Assembly: GCA_000165345.1 (NCBI GenBank) | Contig: CM000434.1 | Location: 736,001 to 800,000, forward strand | Reading direction: 5' to 3' | DNA: 64,000 nt | Shown: positions 7,279 through 50,618 of the stretch, one piece after another | How the letters are laid out: every line of letters begins with the position of its first letter | Numbering within the stretch: position 1 is the first letter of the stretch | Position numbers and translations under genes: made by a program | The notes under the pieces: model-generated | The model's database searches: none | Told to the model about the DNA's origin: nothing | The model's input: only the letters and a program-made list of their open reading frames with translations

Positions 7279-7716
7279 ATGGCAGATACTGAACAAAAGA
7301 AGAGAACCTTCAGAACTTATAGTTACAGAGGTGTTGACCTCGACAAGCTCCTTACCATGAAATTGGATGAGGTTGTTGAGCTTTTACCAGCACGTAAAAG
7401 ACGTAAGATAGCCAGAGGTTGTCTTAACAGAAGAACTGCAGCTTTTATCGCAAAGCTCCGCAAATCTAAGGCTGAATGTCCAATGGGAGAGAAACCTGTT
7501 GCTGTTCGTACCCATTTACGTAATATGGTTATCCTCCCAGAAATGGTTGGTTCTGTTGCAGGTGTCTACAATGGTAAGACTTATGTTACTGTTGAAATTA
7601 AGCCAGAAATGATTGGAATGTACCTTGGAGAGTTCTCTATCACTTACAAGCCAGTACGTCATGGTAAGCCAGGTGTTGGTTCAACCAGTTCTTCCAGATT
7701 CATTCCTCTAAAGTAA
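7279..7716 (+). CDS. RPS15: 40S ribosomal protein S15 (uS19), intronless
   Basis: 145 aa, aligns along its full length to eukaryotic RPS15 (…[68 protein letters not shown]). Confidence 0.95.
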
Positions 7717-9072
7717 AAGGTTATTTTAAGTTACCACCATTATTTATAAGAAAATATTTGGTGCGTATTATTGATTGGCCCTACCATATTCTATTTACAG
7801 AAAAGTTTGTTAACTTTGGAAATATAATAACATGGTCTCTTCTTAAGGGAAATAATCCAGTACTTTCTTTTTTTTCATGTGCTCGGTATGTTCTGAAATC
7901 TAAGGTTGAGAGGATATTGAAGGAGGGGGTCCTCATTTTTTGTATTATTATTCCTTAGAAAAATGGCTCGACCTGCAATTGAAGTAAACAATGAAGAATA
8001 GAAGAAGATGGAATTTGGCATGTAGCTTATTATGAGAGCTTTACAATCATTAACACTGATTTTGTTGAGTATTTGGTACCTTTTCTTAAAATTTGGACTA
8101 TTCCAAAATATTTAACTATAACTCACATTTCAAATCTTATTCTAAAACCTTTATTGATTATATACAATACATCATTATTGTATCGTTTCATGCTCTAAAT
8201 TCCATTAAAGTTGAATAAAACTAACAGCCGCCCCTCCAGTCTTGAAACTATTGGTAATAGATGTATAAATATATATGTATGAGAGACTTCAGCTTCACCA
8301 TTGTTTGGTCTTGGACAAGACAGCCTAAATAATTGATGAACAAAACGATATTGAACTGTCAATTTCTCCTTGAAGTATGCCGCTACACTGACTTTGTCTG
8401 ATTATCAAGTCAATTCCGCATGATTATACCTCCCTAGTGTATATTATGTTGGTGTAGTATGGTCATGTTTATGATGATTATGATGTGGGTCTCTGAATAC
8501 TGATTGTTTACTATTCTAATAAGGTGAAAAGTTTTGATGAATATTGATAAAAACCATTGACTAGCTTTTTTTCAAGAGAGGCTATATATCGATATTTTAT
8601 TCATTTTAGTTCACTTTCTTTTTAGATAGAGGAGGATCTTTATAATTTTTCAGAGTTTTTACTCTTTTCTTTATTTCCTTTCCCACTGCATTTTATATTT
8701 ACCTTTTAAATAATCGATATCAATTCTAATGCATTATGCCTTTGCCTTTCTATGTGACCACTTTTTCCCCACCCGCTAATTTTCTCTTTTGATGCATTTC
8801 TTTTCTTCCCATCAACATAATTTTTCACAAATATGGCGCCTAAATGCGAGACGACAATGACCCGGTACTGAAACTTTATGGCGCCATTCTAAAATATTAA
8901 TTTTTATTTGTAAATAGATTTTAATTATATTTAATTATTATAATATAATTAACTATTTACAAAAAGAGTCATTTAAAGAAAATTTTTTTTGCCTTAAAAG
9001 AAAATTTACTTCTTTTAAAATAACAAATTTTTGAAATTTTGGGACTTTTGTAATTTTAAAGTATTTCCAGAA

Positions 9073-11310
9073 ATGACTTTTGCAAGACCAATTGTTAGTG
9101 TTTTTCCATCAAACGACTCTACAAAGGCTACTTCCAGTATTCCTTTGCCAACAGTCTTTGTTTCTCCATTAAGACATGATCTTGTTCGTTATGTTTTCAC
9201 CAATATGTCAAAGAACAAGAGACAAGCTTATGGTGTTTCCACTAAAGCAGGTAAGTTCTTGAAGATTCAACAGAGGAAATGTAAATGATTTGGTCATTCG
9301 TGATGAAAGCTATTGATAGGGACATCTGAATTTTCCATGATGTTCTGAAGAAATATTCATTATTTCTAAGATAGTAGATTCTGATCATTATGTATATAAT
9401 ACGCCACTTTTACATTTCAACTATATTAATATTATCCAATTGTCTTGAACATCGATTAATTTCTATATTCCACTTTTAGGCCACCAACATTCTGCTGAGT
9501 CATGGGGTACAGGTAGAGCTGTTGCTCGTATTCCTCGTGTTTCTGCTTCTGGTACTAGCAGATCAGGTAAGTTAATGGTAAAACTCATGTTAATAAATGG
9601 CTTGCTCAGTTGATTGGTTAATCTATTTAACTGGGATTAAATAGTATTATTTTCCAAGTGGTGCCATTCTTTTTTTATGGATATAAAGAGAATAACCGGG
9701 ATGAGAAAATTTGATGATCAATAAATATGGAGAGCTTTTTGGTAGACAAATGATGTTAATAAGTCGTGCACCACACTGAATATTTTATGTGGATAAAACG
9801 ATTCTTTGCTGCCTGTTTTAGAGAAAAAGGAGAAATCTTTTGTATCTATAACAGGTAGTCTGACTAACCAATAACTTTCCAGTGATGGTGGATCGTCAAT
9901 GAAACTAGCAGTGTTCATTTTAACATGAGATATCACTTGATTCTAAATCAACTTTATTTTTTCAACTTTTCAATTATAGGCCAGGGTGCTTTCGGTAACA
10001 TGTGTCGTGGTGGTCATATGTTCAGTCCAAACAAGACTTACAGAAGATTCCACAGAAAGATCAATACCACTGAAAAGAGACATGCAGTTGCAGCAGCCAT
10101 TGCAGCTACCGGTTGCCCATCTTTGGTAATGGCTCGTGGACATCGTATCAATAATGTACCAGAATTACCTTTGGTTATATCCAATGAAATCCAAAACATC
10201 AACAAGACTAGTACTGCTGTTGAATTCTTCAAGAATTTCGGTAAGTTTTGAGATTGTATTTGGCCAAAAGATATTTAAGATGATGAGGTACTATGACAAG
10301 CAAGTTTTGTATCTCTTGCTTTTTATTATATGAATGGGAATTTGGTAGTGGTCTGTATTTGATGGATTCCTGTTTCTATATTTGCATTTTTTGGGATGAT
10401 TTTGGAAGTTACCCAGCTCATACTGAAATATGTAACTGTTGAGAATGCTTCCTTTATTTTATATCTGAAATTATGCAGGTAAATTTCTCTGCCTTCTTAA
10501 CTCGTAAGAAAGTGAGAAATAGAAACATTCATATATATTTGTTACTTTATCATCTTTATGATCATGATCATTCCATTTGTCAATAATATTGGCCAAATAT
10601 ATTTATTATATAACCATTAGTAACAATTTTTAACTTAATATCTTTTTAATTCAATAGGTCTCGAAGAAGAAATGAAGCGTATTGAATCTTCAATAGCTAT
10701 TAGATGTGGTAAGGGTAAGATGAGGAATAGAAGAAGAGTCTGCGCTGTAGGACCATTAGTTGTTTATGCTGAAGATAATGGTATTGTTAAGGCCATGAGA
10801 AATATCAAGGGTGTCGATACATGCTCTGTTGAACGTCTTAATCTCTTGAGACTTGCTCCAGGAGGTACATTTGGTCGTCTTACAATCTTCACAAAGGGTG
10901 CCATTAAGAGACTCCAAGAGATCTATGGTAGCTATACTCATGGCTCATCTTCAAAGGTTGGATACACATTGCCACGTCCAGCAATGACTAACGCTGATAT
11001 TACCCGTATCATCAACTCCACTGAAGTTCAATCTGTATTAAGACCATTACGTGGATTCAGATGCATGGGTAGTATGGGTAGATCCAAGACTAAGAAGAAT
11101 AACTTGACAAATCTCACAAAGAGAGCATGCTTGAACCCAGCATACACCAGCCTCAGAAAGAGCGCAAGATTAGCCCAAATCCCAGGTACTAGACTCCATG
11201 CAATTAAACAACGCCAAAAGGCAGCAAACCGTGCACTCAAGAAGTCAATCAAACAGAAATCTGAGACAGCTCTTGCTGCTAAGGCCTTATCTGGTCATAA
11301 CCAAAATTAA
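9073..11310 (+). CDS. RPL4: 60S ribosomal protein L4 (uL4); 4 exons, 3 introns
   Basis: Exon 1 is 9073..9250 ([11 protein letters not shown]…STKAG). Intron 1 has a GTAAGT donor at 9251 and an acceptor AG at 9478-9479. Exon 2 is 9480..9566 ([29 protein letters not shown]), followed by gtaagt. Exon 3 is ~9980..10240 ([44 protein letters not shown]…), with a gtaagt donor at ~10241. Exon 4 is 10658..11310 ([27 protein letters not shown]…). Phases are consistent and the spliced product is ~392 aa. The ORF track shows only fragments (9031, 9925, 10672). Confidence 0.85.
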
Positions 11311-43900: not shown

Positions 43901-44047
43901 AAAGTTATTTGTTACCTCATTAATAGTATAACTTGAAGTATCTGATCCAGTTATAAGCTTTATTGCTTTTTTAAGATCCTTATAAGATAAGTAATGTTGG
44001 ATATACTGTTGATTTACATAATGCTGAAGTTTTTTACTGAATTTCAT
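40937..44047 (-). CDS. VTC4: Vacuolar transporter chaperone Vtc4-like polyphosphate polymerase (SPX + VTC catalytic + DUF202 TM domain)
   Basis: N-terminal SPX (MKFSKKLQHYV…YKDLKKAIK). Central VTC-like region containing '…YLYFDNREFSEYHRIR…'. C-terminal DUF202 with 'ANERTLLQWMNMS' and three TM helices. Large Asn/Ser-rich insertions. The track start (44086) is TTG; the first ATG gives MKFSKK… (~44047). Confidence 0.65.
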   Translation of the reverse strand: MKFSKKLQHYVNQQYIQHYLSYKDLKKAIKLITGSDTSSYTINEVTNNFGNIKALAGSIYRPAESRFMDLLNHELDKINSFSSIMYTDIKDSLKQIQGYIDQISRDLGIINNSSNVNNNNQNDSDSSFFQSGMSKELLDDLISPLIEQLERKSGEIIFLESYQQLNYTGFRKITKKYDKMNKSTSSSWYLARLARESFMNMNLDLLLESLSNCYSKIETLKSAFLMKEESLKCDKTSESDISTHPPFELHSKHLILAEDVMKVKVLLAKIVPLVSIGLLNIEDGMSNKPCLSSPINNNTNSQKAASTENVSSLTLQTSTVSYLYFDNREFSEYHRIREIRSRFSCNSQVNQIEENSSGRIQAYSDEKIVPKKYLDYTFRLRWYGENEGSPDQWLNLDWIHPMEPSCSNTEWHEPKNNNNFVSQATNTSQVSQGGGKRTFSFEGSKALVSSKTLLIQQKDVFHILKTYGDFRRESKNPSLSFNFDLNTYLNETRRNLSQDQIMLLNCFIDFIQFRKLGPFSHLWFHRTTFANPKRNICVHIDNNLKIMPEIDLELLIDEHSQRNNSSLNNLPAQSERKLSSETNRSNCEIVNTELGTNSIFNMRPSILYNTYIVCPQTEALVSENMKIVSHGILSVSLSQDSGNLSSTNSNPREILKDILGLASVSEVNGFSNLETCTALLFSNNLLQVPHWFNFMAIESESQQEITNNIKDTNSEPQTVRSLNRSASLNKELIGVKQLQSFEHEKSSFNNSLLKIDVLHTGKNARILHDQEVTAQREASILTNEIQTNSLSSLNSTHTLSNIHQLKNRPIKKNEIKRELTQSQPHTLHVPLLGNDVDSGIVHAHEQTFPHALARTFRSIFCLCREGSANHGINNIQKKCVSSAVRVEPKTFFANERTLLQWMNMSVLLATISVSLLSFGTQVGRICGLIMAPVAIFFIAYSYYIYLKRNRALETKEPISYNDKFGPTLLVMCLIISLTSVLLLNIIVGGHKQHFKDIHEYYREDYNHYYQNNQNENQLLLQNYNNQSISNGKYLYH

Positions 44048-44337
44048 AACTATTAAAACAATCAACCAAGTCAATATTAAAGCCAAAGTACCATTTAAAT
44101 AATTTCTTATTATAAATGGTTTATTGCTAGCAACAATTATATTTCTATCACTATTGATATTTTTGTTGCTGATTTAATTCTATTATTAATGAATATTTCA
44201 ATTAAATAATAACAAGTATTAAATATGTTTGAGAAATTCATCAACTAGTCAGAATCACCCCCATATGTAGAAAGATCCAATATCGACGAGCGAACTTAAA
44301 AGCTGGGCAAGATAATCCCCTCTCCCTCTTTTTCTCA

Positions 44338-44351
44338 CCCCCCCCCCCCCC
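44338..44351. repeat. Poly-C homopolymer (≈13-14 C) in the VTC4 upstream region
   Basis: 'ctcaccccccccccccccaacttt'. Other long G/C homopolymers: G10 at 26484-26494 upstream of RPN11, and G8 inside the kinase CDS (~62113). Confidence 0.5.
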
Positions 44352-44528
44352 AACTTTCTCCAAATGGAACTGGATCCCTATTTAACCCCTCCAGAAAATC
44401 CTGCATCCCTCGACAAGAAAAAAGAGCAAATTGAAAAAAAACATGCAAATGAAAAAAAAAATAAGATTCAAGCAAAACTGCTGCTATAATTGAAAGATTA
44501 AAGGTAACCTAAGCTAAGGGAATTTCAA

Positions 44529-44942
44529 TTATTCGTCCTCCTCAATTGCGAGTCTGGCATTCTTGTTCAAAACCTTTAAGTTCAACTGCTCAGCTCTCTC
44601 CAAAATCTCTCTTCTCTTACGACTACTTACTCCAGATGCAATCTCAACACAGAAAGTCTTGTTATGCATTAAAAGCATATGAACTTCCTGGGGATTTGAT
44701 ACAGTGAATTTATACAAACCATTTGGAAGCATCTTACGTGTCTTGGCATCACTACCATAACCAATCTTTGGCATTAAATAATTACCCTTGAATTTTCTAC
44801 GTACACGACAATCAATACCTTTTGGTTTTCTCCAGTTTGGCTTGACTCTTAAGAAGCGATCAGATTGGAATCTGGTGAACTTTTTTGTTCTCTTCTTAAT
44901 GATTGCCTTTTTTGGCTTATTCTTAAAGCTTACGATGGACAT
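44529..44942 (-). CDS. RPL32: 60S ribosomal protein L32 (eL32)
   Basis: 137 aa, full-length match to eL32 (…[64 protein letters not shown]…). Confidence 0.95.
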
Positions 44943-45856
44943 CCTCTTAATTTAAAAAGAAATTAGACCTGTGAAATCTTCTATAACAGAAATAGCAAGT
45001 TAGTATTTTTTTTTTTTCTGAGTGGAAAAAAAAATCAATTAACTTGTTTCTAAATTAATCCAAACTTTCTCCTTCAAACAAAGTTTCTGTTTTTCTTATT
45101 TATATTTAATAGAAAACAGAAAATAATTAACCGGTCTTTTTTTCAACCTTATATAATACTTTACTTATATTAAGTTAATATAATAATTAATTAATATTTA
45201 ATTTGAGACAAAACATTTAGTAGACTATTTATTTCAATGAGACAGTATTAATAAATTATTTTTTTTAATTAAAAAAATTAATTATTTGTTTATATATTAA
45301 AACTTTTCTCTATTTATTAATTCCTTTCATTAAATTGTCTCTATTATTACTATTAATACCGGTTCGGTACCCCAATTATGGCGCCACAATGTTCCCGCCA
45401 CATCGTGTGCTACATTATTTAAGAAGAAAATAATGGAAAAAAAAGGAGAAAAAAGGAAATGGAAAGAGAATAACAGAGCAAAATCAGAAATAATTATGTT
45501 TATATTAGGAGATGATTAATTTGATTTCTAGAATGGAAATAATTTGTTGTTTGTGCTTTGTATCGAATATAAGAGGGGAGAGGTGCATTGCATGCATTTT
45601 GAGATCTTGAAAAATAATTTATTTGAACAAATTATTTTTCATTATTGTTTTTTTTCTTTTCTTTCTCTTTTATTGTAGAATTTGGAAAAAAAGTAATTAG
45701 TAAGTTCATATATCTTTTAAAATATAGTATTTTTGGGATTATCTGTACTATTCTTTTAAAATAAGGAAAGAATATATTGTAGCAGGAGTAATCCTGGAAT
45801 GGTTTGTATTATTTCTATTGAGATGTTTGGGATTAAGTTTGGAGGAAATAAAAGTA

Positions 45857-47029
45857 ATGGAAGATTGGCTTCCTGAGTGGGTAAAAATAGGAAACTATGA
45901 ATTGAGAGAAATATATATACCAAAGAGTAAAAAAGAGTTGGGAATATGCCAATATAATATATTAACTTCCGGTAATAAGTTGAAAAAAGATCACGAATGG
46001 TTTTTAGAGAATCGAATTGAGTATTCAAGAAAGAATGGGTATTGTTATTTTCATTTGGATTTAAGTTTTGGTGAGGTTAGAAATCCTCATTATTGGAGAT
46101 ATATTGGAATAATTAAGTTATATAAAAAAGTTCAAGGCTTACTTTCTGATCATAAAGAGCATAATTATTTGGTACTATATATGGATTCCGATACCATGTT
46201 TTCAAGATTTTCTGTAAGAATTGAGGATTTTCATGAAAAGATGAAAGATTCATTTCTATATCTATCAGTGGATGATAATTGTGAATTACAGCATTATTTA
46301 TTAAATGTTGGAGTCTTATTAATGTCTTTAAGAAGATTAGAGACATTAATATTTTGTATTCAAGTACTGGCTTTACAGAAGACTCAGTCTATACTATCTT
46401 ATTCATCAGAATGGAGTAGATCGGGTTTGAATGATCAAAACATTGTTATTTCTGTTTTAAATGATACAGGAAGGTTGGATATTGAGAATATACAAAGTTA
46501 TTGTTTGAGGAAGAAGAATTCATCTTGGTTGGATAATGAAGATCAGTGGATTAATTTGAACTATTCAAAGCAAAACAAAGGAGTAGTGGTTGTTCCCAGT
46601 TTATATTTGAACCAAATTATAAGGATGGATTATATAATGAAATCAAGCGAGTTAAAAACCAATCTTTGGTTAGAAAGGTCATGGATTATTCATTTTAGTG
46701 GATCTAATAGACTAGAACAATGCTTTATGATACAAAAACTTTGTTTAGATAGGATTAGAAAGTTCAAAACAAAGTATAATCATTATTTTAAGGAATGTCC
46801 AGAGAAAATGGAAGAATTGATGACCAAAAATGAACTTAAAAAGATTGAAACTCTATTTTCATTGAAGATGGATTCAAGTTTAGATCCTAATAACTATATT
46901 GGACAAAATTATTTGGTATGGATTAAAGATCTCGAACAGATAGATCTTGGAATAAGAAACTTAAGTAACAGATACTCCATTCTAATTAAAAGGTATGTTT
47001 TAATAAGAATAATAGAAAGGAAGTCTTGA
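45857..47029 (+). CDS. GT34-like glycosyltransferase (DxD motif 'YMDSDTMF'); possibly extended by two 3' exons to 47457
   Basis: 'HNYLVLYMDSDTMFSRF' resembles the GT34/GT32 'W(L/M)DSDA(M/L)F' DxD block; '…WIIHFSGSNR' resembles the C-terminal HFAG block. The track start 45818 is TTG; the first ATG is 45857. No N-terminal TM seen. Possible continuation: GTATGT donor at 46993, exon 47105..47246, GTAAGT donor at 47247, exon 47326..47457. Both exons are stop-free in phase. Confidence 0.45.
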   Translation: MEDWLPEWVKIGNYELREIYIPKSKKELGICQYNILTSGNKLKKDHEWFLENRIEYSRKNGYCYFHLDLSFGEVRNPHYWRYIGIIKLYKKVQGLLSDHKEHNYLVLYMDSDTMFSRFSVRIEDFHEKMKDSFLYLSVDDNCELQHYLLNVGVLLMSLRRLETLIFCIQVLALQKTQSILSYSSEWSRSGLNDQNIVISVLNDTGRLDIENIQSYCLRKKNSSWLDNEDQWINLNYSKQNKGVVVVPSLYLNQIIRMDYIMKSSELKTNLWLERSWIIHFSGSNRLEQCFMIQKLCLDRIRKFKTKYNHYFKECPEKMEELMTKNELKKIETLFSLKMDSSLDPNNYIGQNYLVWIKDLEQIDLGIRNLSNRYSILIKRYVLIRIIERKS

Positions 47030-47608
47030 GAAAATTGAATATTAACTTTAATCTTTAATTACTATAAATTTTGCTATTTTAATATTGTGATTTCATTATT
47101 TTAGAATAATTAAGCTTCTAAAACTAAGTAGAACCAGACAATTCACTCAAAAATCAAAAAGAGAACTAGTAGGAGCAGTTCTACAATTCTTAGAGAATTC
47201 AAACAAATTTGGATTAATTTTTGAGAAACTATATCTCACAGGAATAGTAAGTTTATATAAAATCTTTTCTCTATTTTCCTCATTTTTCCAATTTATTTAA
47301 TTTTTCTTTTTATTCCCTCTTTCAGTCAAACAGAAGAACAATAAAGTATGAAGCAAAAAATGCTATTGAATTCTCTAATATATTCAACTTCTTTTCTCTA
47401 CTAAACAAATGCCCTAATAATTTTGAATATGAAAAAAAATTTACCTCAAAATTTTGAATCACGTTACCTTTTAAGATCACATAAAAATATCCGATACCTG
47501 CAGAATGCATGCATGCAACTGTGCATGCATGTGACCGGTAATGACATGAGAAAAAAATTTGAAGAAATATGGAAAAAAATTAAATAAATTTTATGTATTT
47601 TTTTTATT

Positions 47609-48681
47609 CTAGCAGCAAAATAAGTTTTTGAGGTTTATAATGATTCTTTCTACACAATTAACAAGTTGATGATTATCAAAAATGATGGCAGAGTTTTCAA
47701 GTATTGAATGAGGTATATAGTCGTCTTGTAGGCCTAAGGAGATAGTTCTAATTCTTCCAGCTCCTCTTTGGTTTTCTGGAGAATTTAGTTGATAAGATTC
47801 AGCTCCATAATTGTTTGTAAGTTCTTTGACTCTTTGTTCAAGTCTAAAACATCTTACTCTAAGCCCATCATTTTCTAATCTAAATTTCTCCACTAAAGTG
47901 GAAGTTTCATTAGCTATACTTTTTAAATTATCTTTTTCAAATTTTATCCTTTTTAATGATTCTATAATATCTTTAGATTGTTTATATTCTTCTTTTAAGC
48001 TTTGAATATGAGATTCTCTGAAGTTTTTTTTTCAATAAAGAAAATAAAACAAAATAAGATCAAGTCAAATTCTTAAATAGTGGCTAAATATTGTTTAAGT
48101 TTAACTTACAGAATTGATATATTGTTACTCTGTTGACTTATTTGAGATCTTAAATTTGAGTTCTCCACTTCCAATTGTCTGTTTTTCTGATTCCATTTTT
48201 GGATTCCAACTAGTTTCATTTTAAAAAAATATATATTTTTCATTCATTTCATAAAACTAAACTTACCTTGACTTTCAAATAGAAGATTCTGTATATTCTC
48301 GGTACCCTCAATTTCACAAATTGATTTCCATAAACCTTGAAATGATATAATTTCTTCTAAAGCTATAATAAATTGTTTACACTTTGAAATGATTTGAAAT
48401 TGCTCCTCTAAGCCTTTTTTTAAATTCAAATTTATTTGATCCTTCACATCTAACTCTTCCTGAAGTATATTATTTGTCTCAAGATATAATTTAGATATAC
48501 ACTCTTCACATATTAATTTATCGTATATTTTATATTCAACTGTATTACTTATGTTGCAATTTGAACATTTAACTCTTCCACACAAAGTGCAACAAATTTT
48601 ATGAAACTCATCTAAATTCATACATTCTTCACATATTTCAGTATCTTTCATTAATTCTCTACTTTCAATATTCCTATTCAA
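47609..48681 (-). CDS. Cys-rich zinc-finger + coiled-coil protein (hypothetical); 3 exons merging two listed ORFs
   Basis: Exon A is 48267..48681 (MNRNIESRELMKDTEICEECMNLDEFHKICCTLCGRVKCSNCNISNTVEYKIYDKLICEECISK…FESQ + 1 nt), followed by a GTAAGT donor (plus 'acttac' 48261-48266). Exon B is 48110..48209 (VGIQKWNQKNRQLEVENSNLRSQISQQSNNISIL), preceded by acceptor 'ctag' and followed by a GTAAGT donor (plus 48101-48109). Exon C is 47609..48017 (ESHIQSLKEEYKQ…VEKFRLENDGLRVRCFRLEQ…NLFCC*). Phases are consistent and the product is 307 aa. The N-terminal CxxC×4 pattern is B-box/Atg14-like. Confidence 0.55.
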
Positions 48682-49223
48682 ATATAAAATGCATGAAATT
48701 CTTTTTTTACTATGATCTTTTTCTTTTTTCCACTTACTCTGGTGAGTTTTCTCTAATTTCTCTTTCTATTGGTCCTGGACTCCAACTCATTTCTCTTTTT
48801 TTACTTTTTTTTTCTTTTATTTTTCCTTTGAATCTTTAATATTCAATTTTTTTAAGTTATTGCATTTTTATGCATATTCACCCATTCCCCCCTTTATTGT
48901 CCTCTATACCGGTGTTTACCGTTATTTTTTTTTGTGGACAAAAAAAGTGAGCGGGAAACATCGAACGCCGGTATATAAATATTAAAGCATTAAAAAAAAA
49001 AATATTTTGATTAGTCATTTTTGACAGGAAGAACTTTGTATATTTTTTTTTTCCTCAAAAGTTTTAAATTGAGGAAAATATAAATTTATATTCAAAGTAC
49101 AAAGAAGCCTGTACTCTGATACCATAGGATATAGTCGAAGCAATAAACATTACATTAATAAAGGAGTGAGGAGGGTTTAGAAAATTACAAAATTACTACA
49201 CAATTTAAGCAAGTCAGAAGGCA

Positions 49224-50618
49224 ATGGATAACACAATGATGGAGGATAAAGGGGATTCACAAGTGGAGGTTTTCTTTTGGACGAAGATTAAAGATCCAAG
49301 ACTTCAGGCTCCTGAAGGATCCTTTATGATAGATTCAAAATCTGGAAGAGCGGAACTTTCAGAATTATTAAATACCTTATTAGAAACAGAAAACAGGATT
49401 GCTTTTGATTTTATTATAGATGAAGTGTTTTTGAGAGGTACTATTTATGATTATATGAGACAGAATGAGAAAACAAGTGAATCAAAACTTAAAATAGAGT
49501 ATCTTAAAACCCTTGGAAAACCATCAATAAAGATTTTAGATAAGCAAAAGGATTGGATTAGGAGCATCACATATGGAATAGAGACAGATAATCCCATGGT
49601 AGTAGCAGGATTCTACGATGGAAGGATTAGATTTTATGATACAATTTCACATAAAAAAGATAAGAAAGTCAAATTGGACGAAGATGATAATATTAGAGAC
49701 AATAAAAGTCAAACATTTGAATTTAATGTCAATGAATTATTACCAGAAGGAGATTCTACTTCTGTTTTTAGAGTCCAATCTCAACAACTAAATGATTCCG
49801 AGTTTTCCAAAGTTTGGGCCTCAACAATGAGCGGTTCCATTATAGGTTTAAGCTATTCAGCAAAGAGACAAGAATGCATTTTGAAAAGTGTTAAACTCAA
49901 AGCCAGTATTGCTCCTATTGAAGCTCTTTGTACTGTAAAAGGATGCGATTCAATAATATCAGCAGGAGATGCAAATGGTAATGTTTTAGTATTTTGTAAG
50001 GAGTCCACAGATAATGGTACTTTAAATAATATAGAAAATACAAACAGCTTAAATTGTACTGCTAAGATAAAAATCCATTCTTCTAACGTTACAGATATAC
50101 TATCTTTGGGAGATAATTTGATTTCCTCAAGTTTGGATGGTAATATTAAGGTGTCTAAAGTTTCATTAGGAGAAGCTGTTTGCGGGTGGAATATTAAATT
50201 TCCAACATTCTCTTTATCTACTCAAAATTCCATGGTAGGAAATGTAATTTGTACTTCTCATGATGATGGTAAAGTTAGGATTTGGGATTTAAGGGCAGGA
50301 GCAACCAGCCAAATAGACCTTAAAGCAAAAAAAGATATGGGTTTAGTATCTTTTGATAGAAATACTCGTTTTGTCCATAGGAGCAGACTTCTTGCTCATA
50401 AGGAAGTTGTTCCACAAGCTGTTTGGAGTCCATATAGTGAATATATGATAGGGTCAGTTTCACATGACATGGATTTGAAAATCCTGGATATAAGGTCACC
50501 AAATTTACCACTTCAAGCAGCAAAAACTGACTCAAAATTACTTAGCCTCTGTTGGATGAATGAGCATACCATTTATACAGGAGGCTCAACAGGAGAACTT
50601 ATAGTTTGTTCATTTTAG
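49224..50618 (+). CDS. YTM1: Ribosome biogenesis WD40 protein Ytm1/WDR12 (N-terminal ubiquitin-like NLE domain + WD repeats)
   Basis: N-terminus 'QVEVFFWTKIKDPRLQAPEGSFMIDSKSGRAELSELLNTLLETENRIAFDFIIDEVFLRGTIYDYM' matches the Ytm1/WDR12 NLE domain (…FDFLI.GELLRTSL.DYL). Followed by seven WD-like repeats (e.g. …SHDDGKVRIWDLR…). Confidence 0.75.
   Translation: MDNTMMEDKGDSQVEVFFWTKIKDPRLQAPEGSFMIDSKSGRAELSELLNTLLETENRIAFDFIIDEVFLRGTIYDYMRQNEKTSESKLKIEYLKTLGKPSIKILDKQKDWIRSITYGIETDNPMVVAGFYDGRIRFYDTISHKKDKKVKLDEDDNIRDNKSQTFEFNVNELLPEGDSTSVFRVQSQQLNDSEFSKVWASTMSGSIIGLSYSAKRQECILKSVKLKASIAPIEALCTVKGCDSIISAGDANGNVLVFCKESTDNGTLNNIENTNSLNCTAKIKIHSSNVTDILSLGDNLISSSLDGNIKVSKVSLGEAVCGWNIKFPTFSLSTQNSMVGNVICTSHDDGKVRIWDLRAGATSQIDLKAKKDMGLVSFDRNTRFVHRSRLLAHKEVVPQAVWSPYSEYMIGSVSHDMDLKILDIRSPNLPLQAAKTDSKLLSLCWMNEHTIYTGGSTGELIVCSF

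Follow-up and report, generated by a model that had tools for sequence, protein, structure and literature searches.

A putative GT34-like glycosyltransferase gene of Cryptosporidium parvum: evidence for two short 3' introns, a conserved C-terminal tail and a candidate membrane anchor upstream of the annotated start

The window analysed here is a 64,000-nt stretch of chromosome 6 of Cryptosporidium parvum (contig CM000434.1, positions 736,001 to 800,000, forward strand) with a G+C content of 31.5%, and coordinates below are window positions. The region of interest carries, in this order, genes for a VTC/SPX protein, ribosomal protein L32e, and a GT34-like protein, then a convergent gene on the minus strand and one for an NLE/WD40 protein; this order recurs in the C. 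parvum and C. hominis assemblies. When 44000..50000 was scanned against Rfam, one sub-threshold snoRNA match within the WD40 gene was the only result. The coding part of the GT34-like gene is modelled in three exons (Table 1), and the glycosyltransferase-like (GT-A) domain with its DxD motif (LYMDSDTM) sits, according to the translation, in the first of them. The 3' UTRs of this gene and of the convergent gene must both be confined to the short gap that separates the two stop codons.

Both introns follow the GT-AG rule with a pyrimidine-rich tract upstream of the acceptor. The sequence directly before exon 2 reads ...tttcattattttag, and the pyrimidine tract ...ttattccctctttcag lies before exon 3. 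When intron 1 is left unspliced, the frame continues as RYVLIRIIERKS to a stop at 47027-47029, which gives the old 390-aa model. A naive frame-1 translation of exon 2 contains stops because its first base finishes the AG|A codon for arginine, whereas the spliced CDS, which joins the three exons, amounts to 1410 nt (469 codons and TGA), with a frame that is unbroken over both junctions to the stop. The elements listed in the first-pass annotation, including the GTATGT at 46993, the two downstream exons, the GTAAGT at 47247, the pyrimidine tract, and the translations, are all present, and its proposal that both exons are open in the phase set by the upstream splice is borne out by a CDS free of internal stops.

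Table 1. Features of the GT34-like locus and its immediate neighbours (window positions).
Feature	Position	Strand	Description
Ribosomal protein L32e ORF	44529..44942	-	
Unannotated in-frame conserved coding sequence (candidate)	45758..45856	+	Adjoins the annotated ATG: KIRKEYIVAGVILEWFVLFLLRCLGLSLEEIKV; basic cluster, then putative hydrophobic membrane anchor
Exon 1 as now annotated	45857..46992	+	From ATG 45857 to a phase-2 donor; residues 1-378 plus two bases of Arg379
Intron 1	46993..47104	+	112 nt; GTATGT (46993-46998)...TTTTAG
Exon 2	47105..47246	+	142 nt (1 + 47 codons): (R)IIKLLKLSRTRQFTQKSKRELVGAVLQFLENSNKFGLIFEKLYLTGI
Intron 2	47247..47325	+	79 nt, phase 0; GTAAGT...pyrimidine tract...TTTCAG
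Exon 3	47326..47457	+	132 nt: 43 codons and TGA (47455-47457): SNRRTIKYEAKNAIEFSNIFNFFSLLNKCPNNFEYEKKFTSKF, then stop; holds the invariant KC motif
Gap between this gene's stop and the convergent gene's stop	47458..47608		151 nt; TGCATGCA repeats
Convergent gene	47609..48790	-	

An exact-sequence look-up showed that the spliced 469-aa product is identical, residue for residue, to QOY41220.1 (CPATCC_0014920), WKS78449.1 (cpbgf_6003350), and WRK32940.1 from three C. parvum assemblies. QOY41220.1 and WKS78449.1, both named "uncharacterized protein", are built from the same three CDS segments, and their start likewise lies downstream of the candidate membrane anchor discussed below. C. hominis (KAL3127687.1) and C. 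meleagridis (POM84652.1) each have an orthologue model of 469 aa, and gene calls with 469 residues on three assemblies of C. parvum and C. hominis (on L001 at 7486..9086, minus strand) correspond to 45857..47457 of the window. The exact three-exon model is thus already present in newer public annotations, so that the finding is correct but already known. For the CPATCC annotation, PMC8744675 states that 100% of the introns have RNA-seq support, which backs the splicing of this gene indirectly. No mention of the gene under the tried locus tags and accessions was found in the literature searched.

Other deposited models differ at the 3' end. The C. parvum Iowa II model XP_627680.1/EAK89958.1, whose old locus tag is, as we presume from the cpbgf numbering, cgd6_3350, shares the start and exon 1 but reads through the donor at 46993 and therefore ends without the 91-residue tail encoded by exons 2 and 3. 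Unspliced 390-aa models of this kind were also deposited for C. hominis (CUV06761.1) and C. tyzzeri (TRY51229.1), and genes of the same form were called on L003 and L004. A third version, CAD98376.1 (444 aa) from the 2003 annotation of C. parvum chromosome 6, has the same intron 1 and exon 2 as the current model, but its last exon is different and non-conserved (QQNKFLRFIMILSTQLTS).

Conservation of the 3' exons was followed in orthologous loci of chipmunk genotype I (L007), C. canis (L008), C. xiaoi (L009), C. ryanae (L010), C. muris (L011), C. meleagridis (L013), a Logan contig (L012), and an ENA metagenome contig (L014). With tblastn, both exons were found in C. hominis, chipmunk genotype I, C. 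canis, the Logan contig, C. xiaoi, and C. ryanae (E values from 1e-6 to 1e-26), while in C. meleagridis and the ENA contig they were recognised by inspection. They occur 3' of exon 1 even in those intestinal lineages that are annotated only to the read-through end. In all nine Cryptosporidium lineages both junctions are GT..AG with the same phase and exon 2 measures exactly 142 nt. In seven lineages, exon 3 varies between 132 and 156 nt. The length of intron 1 lies between 67 and 179 nt across the nine lineages, and that of intron 2 between 46 and 86 nt in the same seven, reaching about 108 nt in the ENA contig; both introns contain stops. C. xiaoi and C. ryanae proteins show only 43-44% identity overall, yet the alignment covers the entire tail. 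The conservation of the extension in orthologues, which the first-pass annotation had named as a check, is therefore seen at the protein level in nine lineages.

The substitution pattern points in the same direction. Differences in exon 2 at codon positions 1, 2, and 3 number 4, 7, and 25 between C. parvum and C. canis and 6, 3, and 20 between C. canis and the Logan contig, and the first 25 codons of exon 3 differ between C. parvum and C. canis at 3, 4, and 11 sites, respectively. Introns lose identity to C. parvum faster than exons do in chipmunk genotype I, C. canis, and the Logan contig; in C. canis the identity is 0.50 for intron 1 and 0.38 for intron 2 versus 0.77 for exon 2. These data indicate that purifying selection is acting on exons 2 and 3 in the proposed frames. 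The gastric lineage C. muris has a same-phase GTAAGT donor, an acceptor, and a 145-nt open exon ending at another GTAAGT. A search of C. muris DNA with an HMM of the tail (three-sequence search) gave only a weak similarity for exon 2 (E 0.026) and no clear match for exon 3, and conservation of the 3' exons in the gastric clade is for these reasons graded as probable.

The region 46993..47457 is thus very probably the 3' part of one C. parvum gene, CPATCC_0014920/cpbgf_6003350, in which two short spliceosomal introns, of 112 and 79 nt, alternate with the final pair of coding exons. Splicing from 46992 to 47105 (phase 2) and from 47246 to 47326 (phase 0) would append a conserved, predicted-helical tail of 91 residues, and the splicing of both introns would be constitutive. 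The extension of the gene and the different C-terminus suggested by the first-pass annotation were well founded, as the 469-aa product is deposited and the tail is conserved with identical junction phases in nine lineages.

Counting against the three-exon reading are the 390-aa models for C. hominis as well as C. tyzzeri, both from the era of RNA-seq-informed reannotation. Together with XP_627680.1 and the genes called on L003 and L004, they would fit a main or regulated product that ends at 47027-47029, with intron 1 often retained and the downstream exons used in a minor isoform. We consider this very unlikely; some 390-aa protein may still arise through retention of intron 1. The peptides read through after exon 1 are unconserved and unrelated between species, with stops placed anywhere from 1 to more than 30 codons past the donor, whereas the downstream exons are under purifying selection and the GTATGT donor and the acceptor are canonical in all lineages. 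Moreover, models of this type are the expected output of ORF calling that is blind to introns.

Even less probable is the third exon of CAD98376.1, in which an acceptor near 47610 would replace that at 47326 and the protein would end in ...LYLTGIQQNKFLRFIMILSTQLTS. This exon was used by a deposited model that agrees with the current one on intron 1 and exon 2; nevertheless, it would start at about 47613 and overlap the coding end of the convergent gene (stop at 47609), and it was dropped from newer annotations. The competing exon at 47326, on the other hand, is kept in nine lineages with third-position bias.

An independent small gene located 3' of the glycosyltransferase-like gene, which the first-pass annotation alone had offered as an option, seemed conceivable as the two frames follow the in-frame stop of the upstream ORF. 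It can be excluded because neither C. parvum exon contains a methionine codon from which an independent gene could start, and exon 2 in every species owes its phase to two bases of exon 1. The available 75 nt is too little room for a promoter, and in C. xiaoi, C. ryanae, and C. meleagridis the full-length orthologue models treat the frames as a continuation of the upstream ORF.

The first-pass annotation had also regarded open frames of 47 and 43 codons as improbable by chance at 70% AT. Among 5000 dinucleotide-preserving shuffles of 47030..47608 (579 nt; plus-strand frames), 52% held a stop-free run of at least 47 codons in some frame and 15% held two non-overlapping runs of at least 43 codons, so that the length of the open frames on its own is not unusual here. 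The argument stands for the full arrangement: a splice-compatible chain was found in 0 of 3000 shuffles. Such a chain starts at an acceptor in the right phase, continues through at least 120 nt of open exon up to a GT[AG][AT]GT donor, and resumes at another acceptor with no less than 100 nt of open exon that run to a stop. Notwithstanding the frequency of long runs in shuffled sequence, the idea that the frames are open by chance, in AT-rich DNA of a 3' UTR or an intergenic region, is already refuted by the cross-species conservation of both exons at the protein level (tblastn), the conserved junctions, the codon-position bias, and the fixed 142-nt length of exon 2 next to introns of variable length.

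The three-exon structure has consequences for work on this gene. The present analysis is an independent confirmation of the public gene model from sequence alone and comparative data. The 390-aa and 444-aa models still in circulation (XP_627680.1, UniProt Q5CWX4) are truncated or wrong at the 3' end, and so are annotations of C. hominis, C. tyzzeri, chipmunk genotype I, and C. canis. For tagging or deletion in C. parvum, the proper target is the stop at 47455-47457, not that at 47027-47029. Correct 5' and 3' ends are a precondition for the study of this GT34-like gene in a major diarrhoeal pathogen.

The 5' end of the gene is less settled. Upstream of the annotated ATG the frame is open back to a TAG at 45725-45727 and includes no in-frame ATG, and the stretch adjoining the annotated start encodes a segment with a Kyte-Doolittle maximum of 2.15. 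This stretch is conserved in C. hominis, C. meleagridis, chipmunk genotype I, C. canis, and the Logan contig; corresponding anchors occur in C. xiaoi, C. ryanae, the ENA contig, and C. muris, and in every lineage the anchor precedes a WLPEW motif. Differences from C. parvum by codon position number 3, 1, and 9 in chipmunk genotype I and 11, 9, and 23 in C. canis, while the ten codons further upstream of the anchor stretch show no third-position bias. Between the anchor and the stop that lies upstream of it, no in-frame ATG was found in any of the nine lineages readable there (C. parvum and eight others). Two out-of-frame ATGs are located just 5' of the annotated start, at 45799 and 45823. All ten members of the 90% cluster are at most 469 aa long; therefore, no public parvum-clade model includes the anchor.

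The newest models look 5'-incomplete because the conserved anchor lies upstream of an annotated ATG and is not accompanied by an in-frame ATG. In our judgement, the chances are about even that the parvum, hominis, and meleagridis models lack a coding-constrained anchor sequence, the translation of which would start in a 5' micro-exon or at a near-cognate codon (candidate ATA at 45761). For C. xiaoi, C. ryanae, and C. muris, the annotated models take the ATG from a very small 5' exon. The ATG-AGA-AAA with which C. muris initiates seems to match ATA-AGG-AAA at 45761 in C. parvum, and C. canis has ATT there; near-cognate initiation at this ATA would be an outside possibility.

Three 5' exon models were tried, and none fitted all of C. 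parvum, C. hominis, C. meleagridis, and chipmunk genotype I. An exon running from the ATG at 45592 (MHFEIL...) straight into the anchor was rejected on account of indels in 45611..45700 whose lengths are not multiples of three among these four lineages. An intron of 28-35 nt from GTAATT or GTAAGT (45693/45700) to the TAG at 45727 was discarded as both sites are lost in C. meleagridis. The use of the acceptor ...aaaataAG (45765) would entail a 1-nt shift in C. meleagridis, where the change from AGG to AAG fits a conservative Arg-to-Lys replacement instead. A type II topology, as in GT34, would be provided by the candidate N-terminal signal anchor, which is in frame upstream of the ATG and for which the start codon was not found. 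The unannotated anchor may be the sole new element of this analysis.

At the opposite end of the protein, splicing exchanges the 12-residue read-through end for the tail spanning residues 379-469. Its conserved blocks are SKRxLVG..QF..NS..F, NRKTIK, and F.FFS...KC, and the cysteine of the KC motif is invariant in nine lineages. In the AlphaFold2 model, the tail extends the long helix 352-386 with helices at 394-424, 429-438, 446-452, and 460-468, all of which are predicted at pLDDT <50, so that the structural role of the tail is conjecture. As a working inference, it could constitute an integral helical part of a luminal enzyme, possibly disulfide-linked or mediating oligomerisation, and it is probably not a dispensable appendage. 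The tail HMM gave nothing significant against 29 remote homologues and cluster members, including chromerid proteins and the C. parvum paralogue CAD98280.1. Since neither a chromerid homologue nor the paralogue was matched, the tail appears to be specific to Cryptosporidium orthologues.

The assignment to a glycosyltransferase family is indirect. The C. parvum protein has no Pfam match even at E<=10, and PF05637 (Glyco_transf_34), with a gathering cut-off of 23 bits, matches 4 of 11 orthologues weakly (best E 1.9e-4). A profile search of 1.84 billion representatives identified 30 relatives, among them proteins of Chromera velia and Vitrella brassicaformis and the paralogue CAD98280.1, and two of these relatives exceed the PF05637 cut-off (P0019 with 28.9 bits and P0022 with 46.2 bits). 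The link between the C. parvum protein and PF05637 is thus transitive only, because it is other homologues, and not the protein itself, that exceed the cut-off. D110 and D112 of LYMDSDTM are invariant in 11 sequences. A published reconstruction of Cryptosporidium glycosylation pathways does not include the gene and has no entry "GT34" (PMC9713705).

The AlphaFold2 model has a mean pLDDT of 60, and most of residues 1-250 lie between 65 and 88. Its best PDB matches with Foldseek are 2P6W and 2P72 (E 2e-4), structures of the PBCV-1 capsid glycosyltransferase; other GT-A enzymes come next, and the top matches have TM-scores of 0.3 by query and 0.6 by target. When PDB sequences were searched with a profile, no match appeared at E<=10. 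We take PBCV-1 A64R, the protein of structure 2P6W, to be a GT34 member according to CAZy. The label "GT34-like" of the first-pass annotation holds in its "-like" form only, considering that chromerid homologues pass PF05637 and that the fold model has its best PDB matches in the PBCV-1 enzyme, while the protein has no Pfam match of its own. With the invariant DxD, the relatives passing PF05637, and the PBCV-1 fold matches, "putative GT34-like GT-A glycosyltransferase" seems a fair description, to which formal Pfam membership does not extend. Compared with GT34 (PF05637, the GMA12/MNN10 family), the C. parvum protein stands apart by its 91-residue C-terminal tail, for which neither the chromerid homologues nor CAD98280.1 have an equivalent; it has in common with this family the DxD motif and, tentatively, a GT-A-like predicted fold.

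The two 3' exons of the GT34-like glycosyltransferase gene are truncated or omitted in several public models of its orthologues. The read-through end after exon 1 is the annotation endpoint in chipmunk genotype I, C. canis, the Logan contig locus (L012) and the 390-aa entries of C. hominis and C. tyzzeri, although both 3' exons are intact downstream. The C. canis models (321 and 332 aa) additionally begin at internal starts. In C. ryanae, the deposited protein P0016 lacks ILKYLS because its model takes as acceptor an AG lying 18 nt into exon 2 (...tatttaag/T; C. ryanae locus L010, 3992..4080), while the acceptor ...acaaaag/A matches that of all other species and restores the 142-nt exon 2.

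The 5' end of the gene harbours a conserved signal anchor that is left out of all public parvum-clade models (469 aa or shorter). No in-frame ATG for this anchor was found in C. parvum and eight other lineages, and the ATGs at 45799 and 45823 are out of frame with it. Further upstream, a conserved block is still discernible in C. canis, the Logan contig and C. ryanae, and its ATG is the annotated start in C. ryanae. The adjoining sequence is less conserved than the block itself and carries indels that are not multiples of three. The block could represent either a promoter element of the TGCATGCA type or a portion of a first exon.

Features at the glycosyltransferase-like locus and its flanks (window positions)
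Feature	Position	Strand	Description
Motif series	45355..45415		CCGGTTCGGTACC, GGCGCC...TTCCCGCC, CATCGTGTGCTACAT, in this order; divergent L32e/glycosyltransferase-like intergenic region
Conserved block	about 45575..45610		GGGGAGAGGTGCATTGCATGCATTT[T/A]GAGATCTTG; near-invariant in C. parvum, C. hominis, C. meleagridis, chipmunk genotype I
Signal anchor	45728..45856, especially 45758..45856	+	KIRKEYIVAGVILEWFVLFLLRCLGLSLEEIKV; in frame, conserved, 5' of annotated ATG 45857
TGCATGCA motifs	47506, 47510, 47522		Three, overlapping; within 47490..47540, in the 151-nt gap between convergent stop codons
CCGGT/GATACC motif	47490..47540		Same gap
Convergent neighbour	47609..48790	-	Multi-intron gene; Cys-rich, coiled-coil-like product

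Within the motif series of the divergent intergenic region, GGCGCC...TTCCCGCC is E2F-like; similar paired GGCGG/CCGCC and CACGTGCTGCAT motifs lie at the equivalent position in C. canis, the Logan contig, C. xiaoi, C. ryanae and C. muris. Since TGCATGCA normally counts as an upstream element, the gap between convergent genes is an odd site for it. TGCATGCA and GGTACC-like motifs occupy the equivalent gap position in C. hominis, chipmunk genotype I, C. canis and the Logan contig, and the cluster might act as an antisense or bidirectional promoter. The protein of the convergent neighbour gave no Pfam match. Its annotated length varies from 319 to 342 aa among assemblies; therefore, this gene model also seems unsettled.

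A profile search retrieved a second GT34-like C. parvum protein, CAD98280.1 (563 aa, E 5e-34), encoded elsewhere on chromosome 6, alongside homologues from Chromera and Vitrella. Not mentioned in the glycosylation-pathway reconstruction (PMC9713705), the C. parvum GT34-like proteins and these homologues constitute a small alveolate family.
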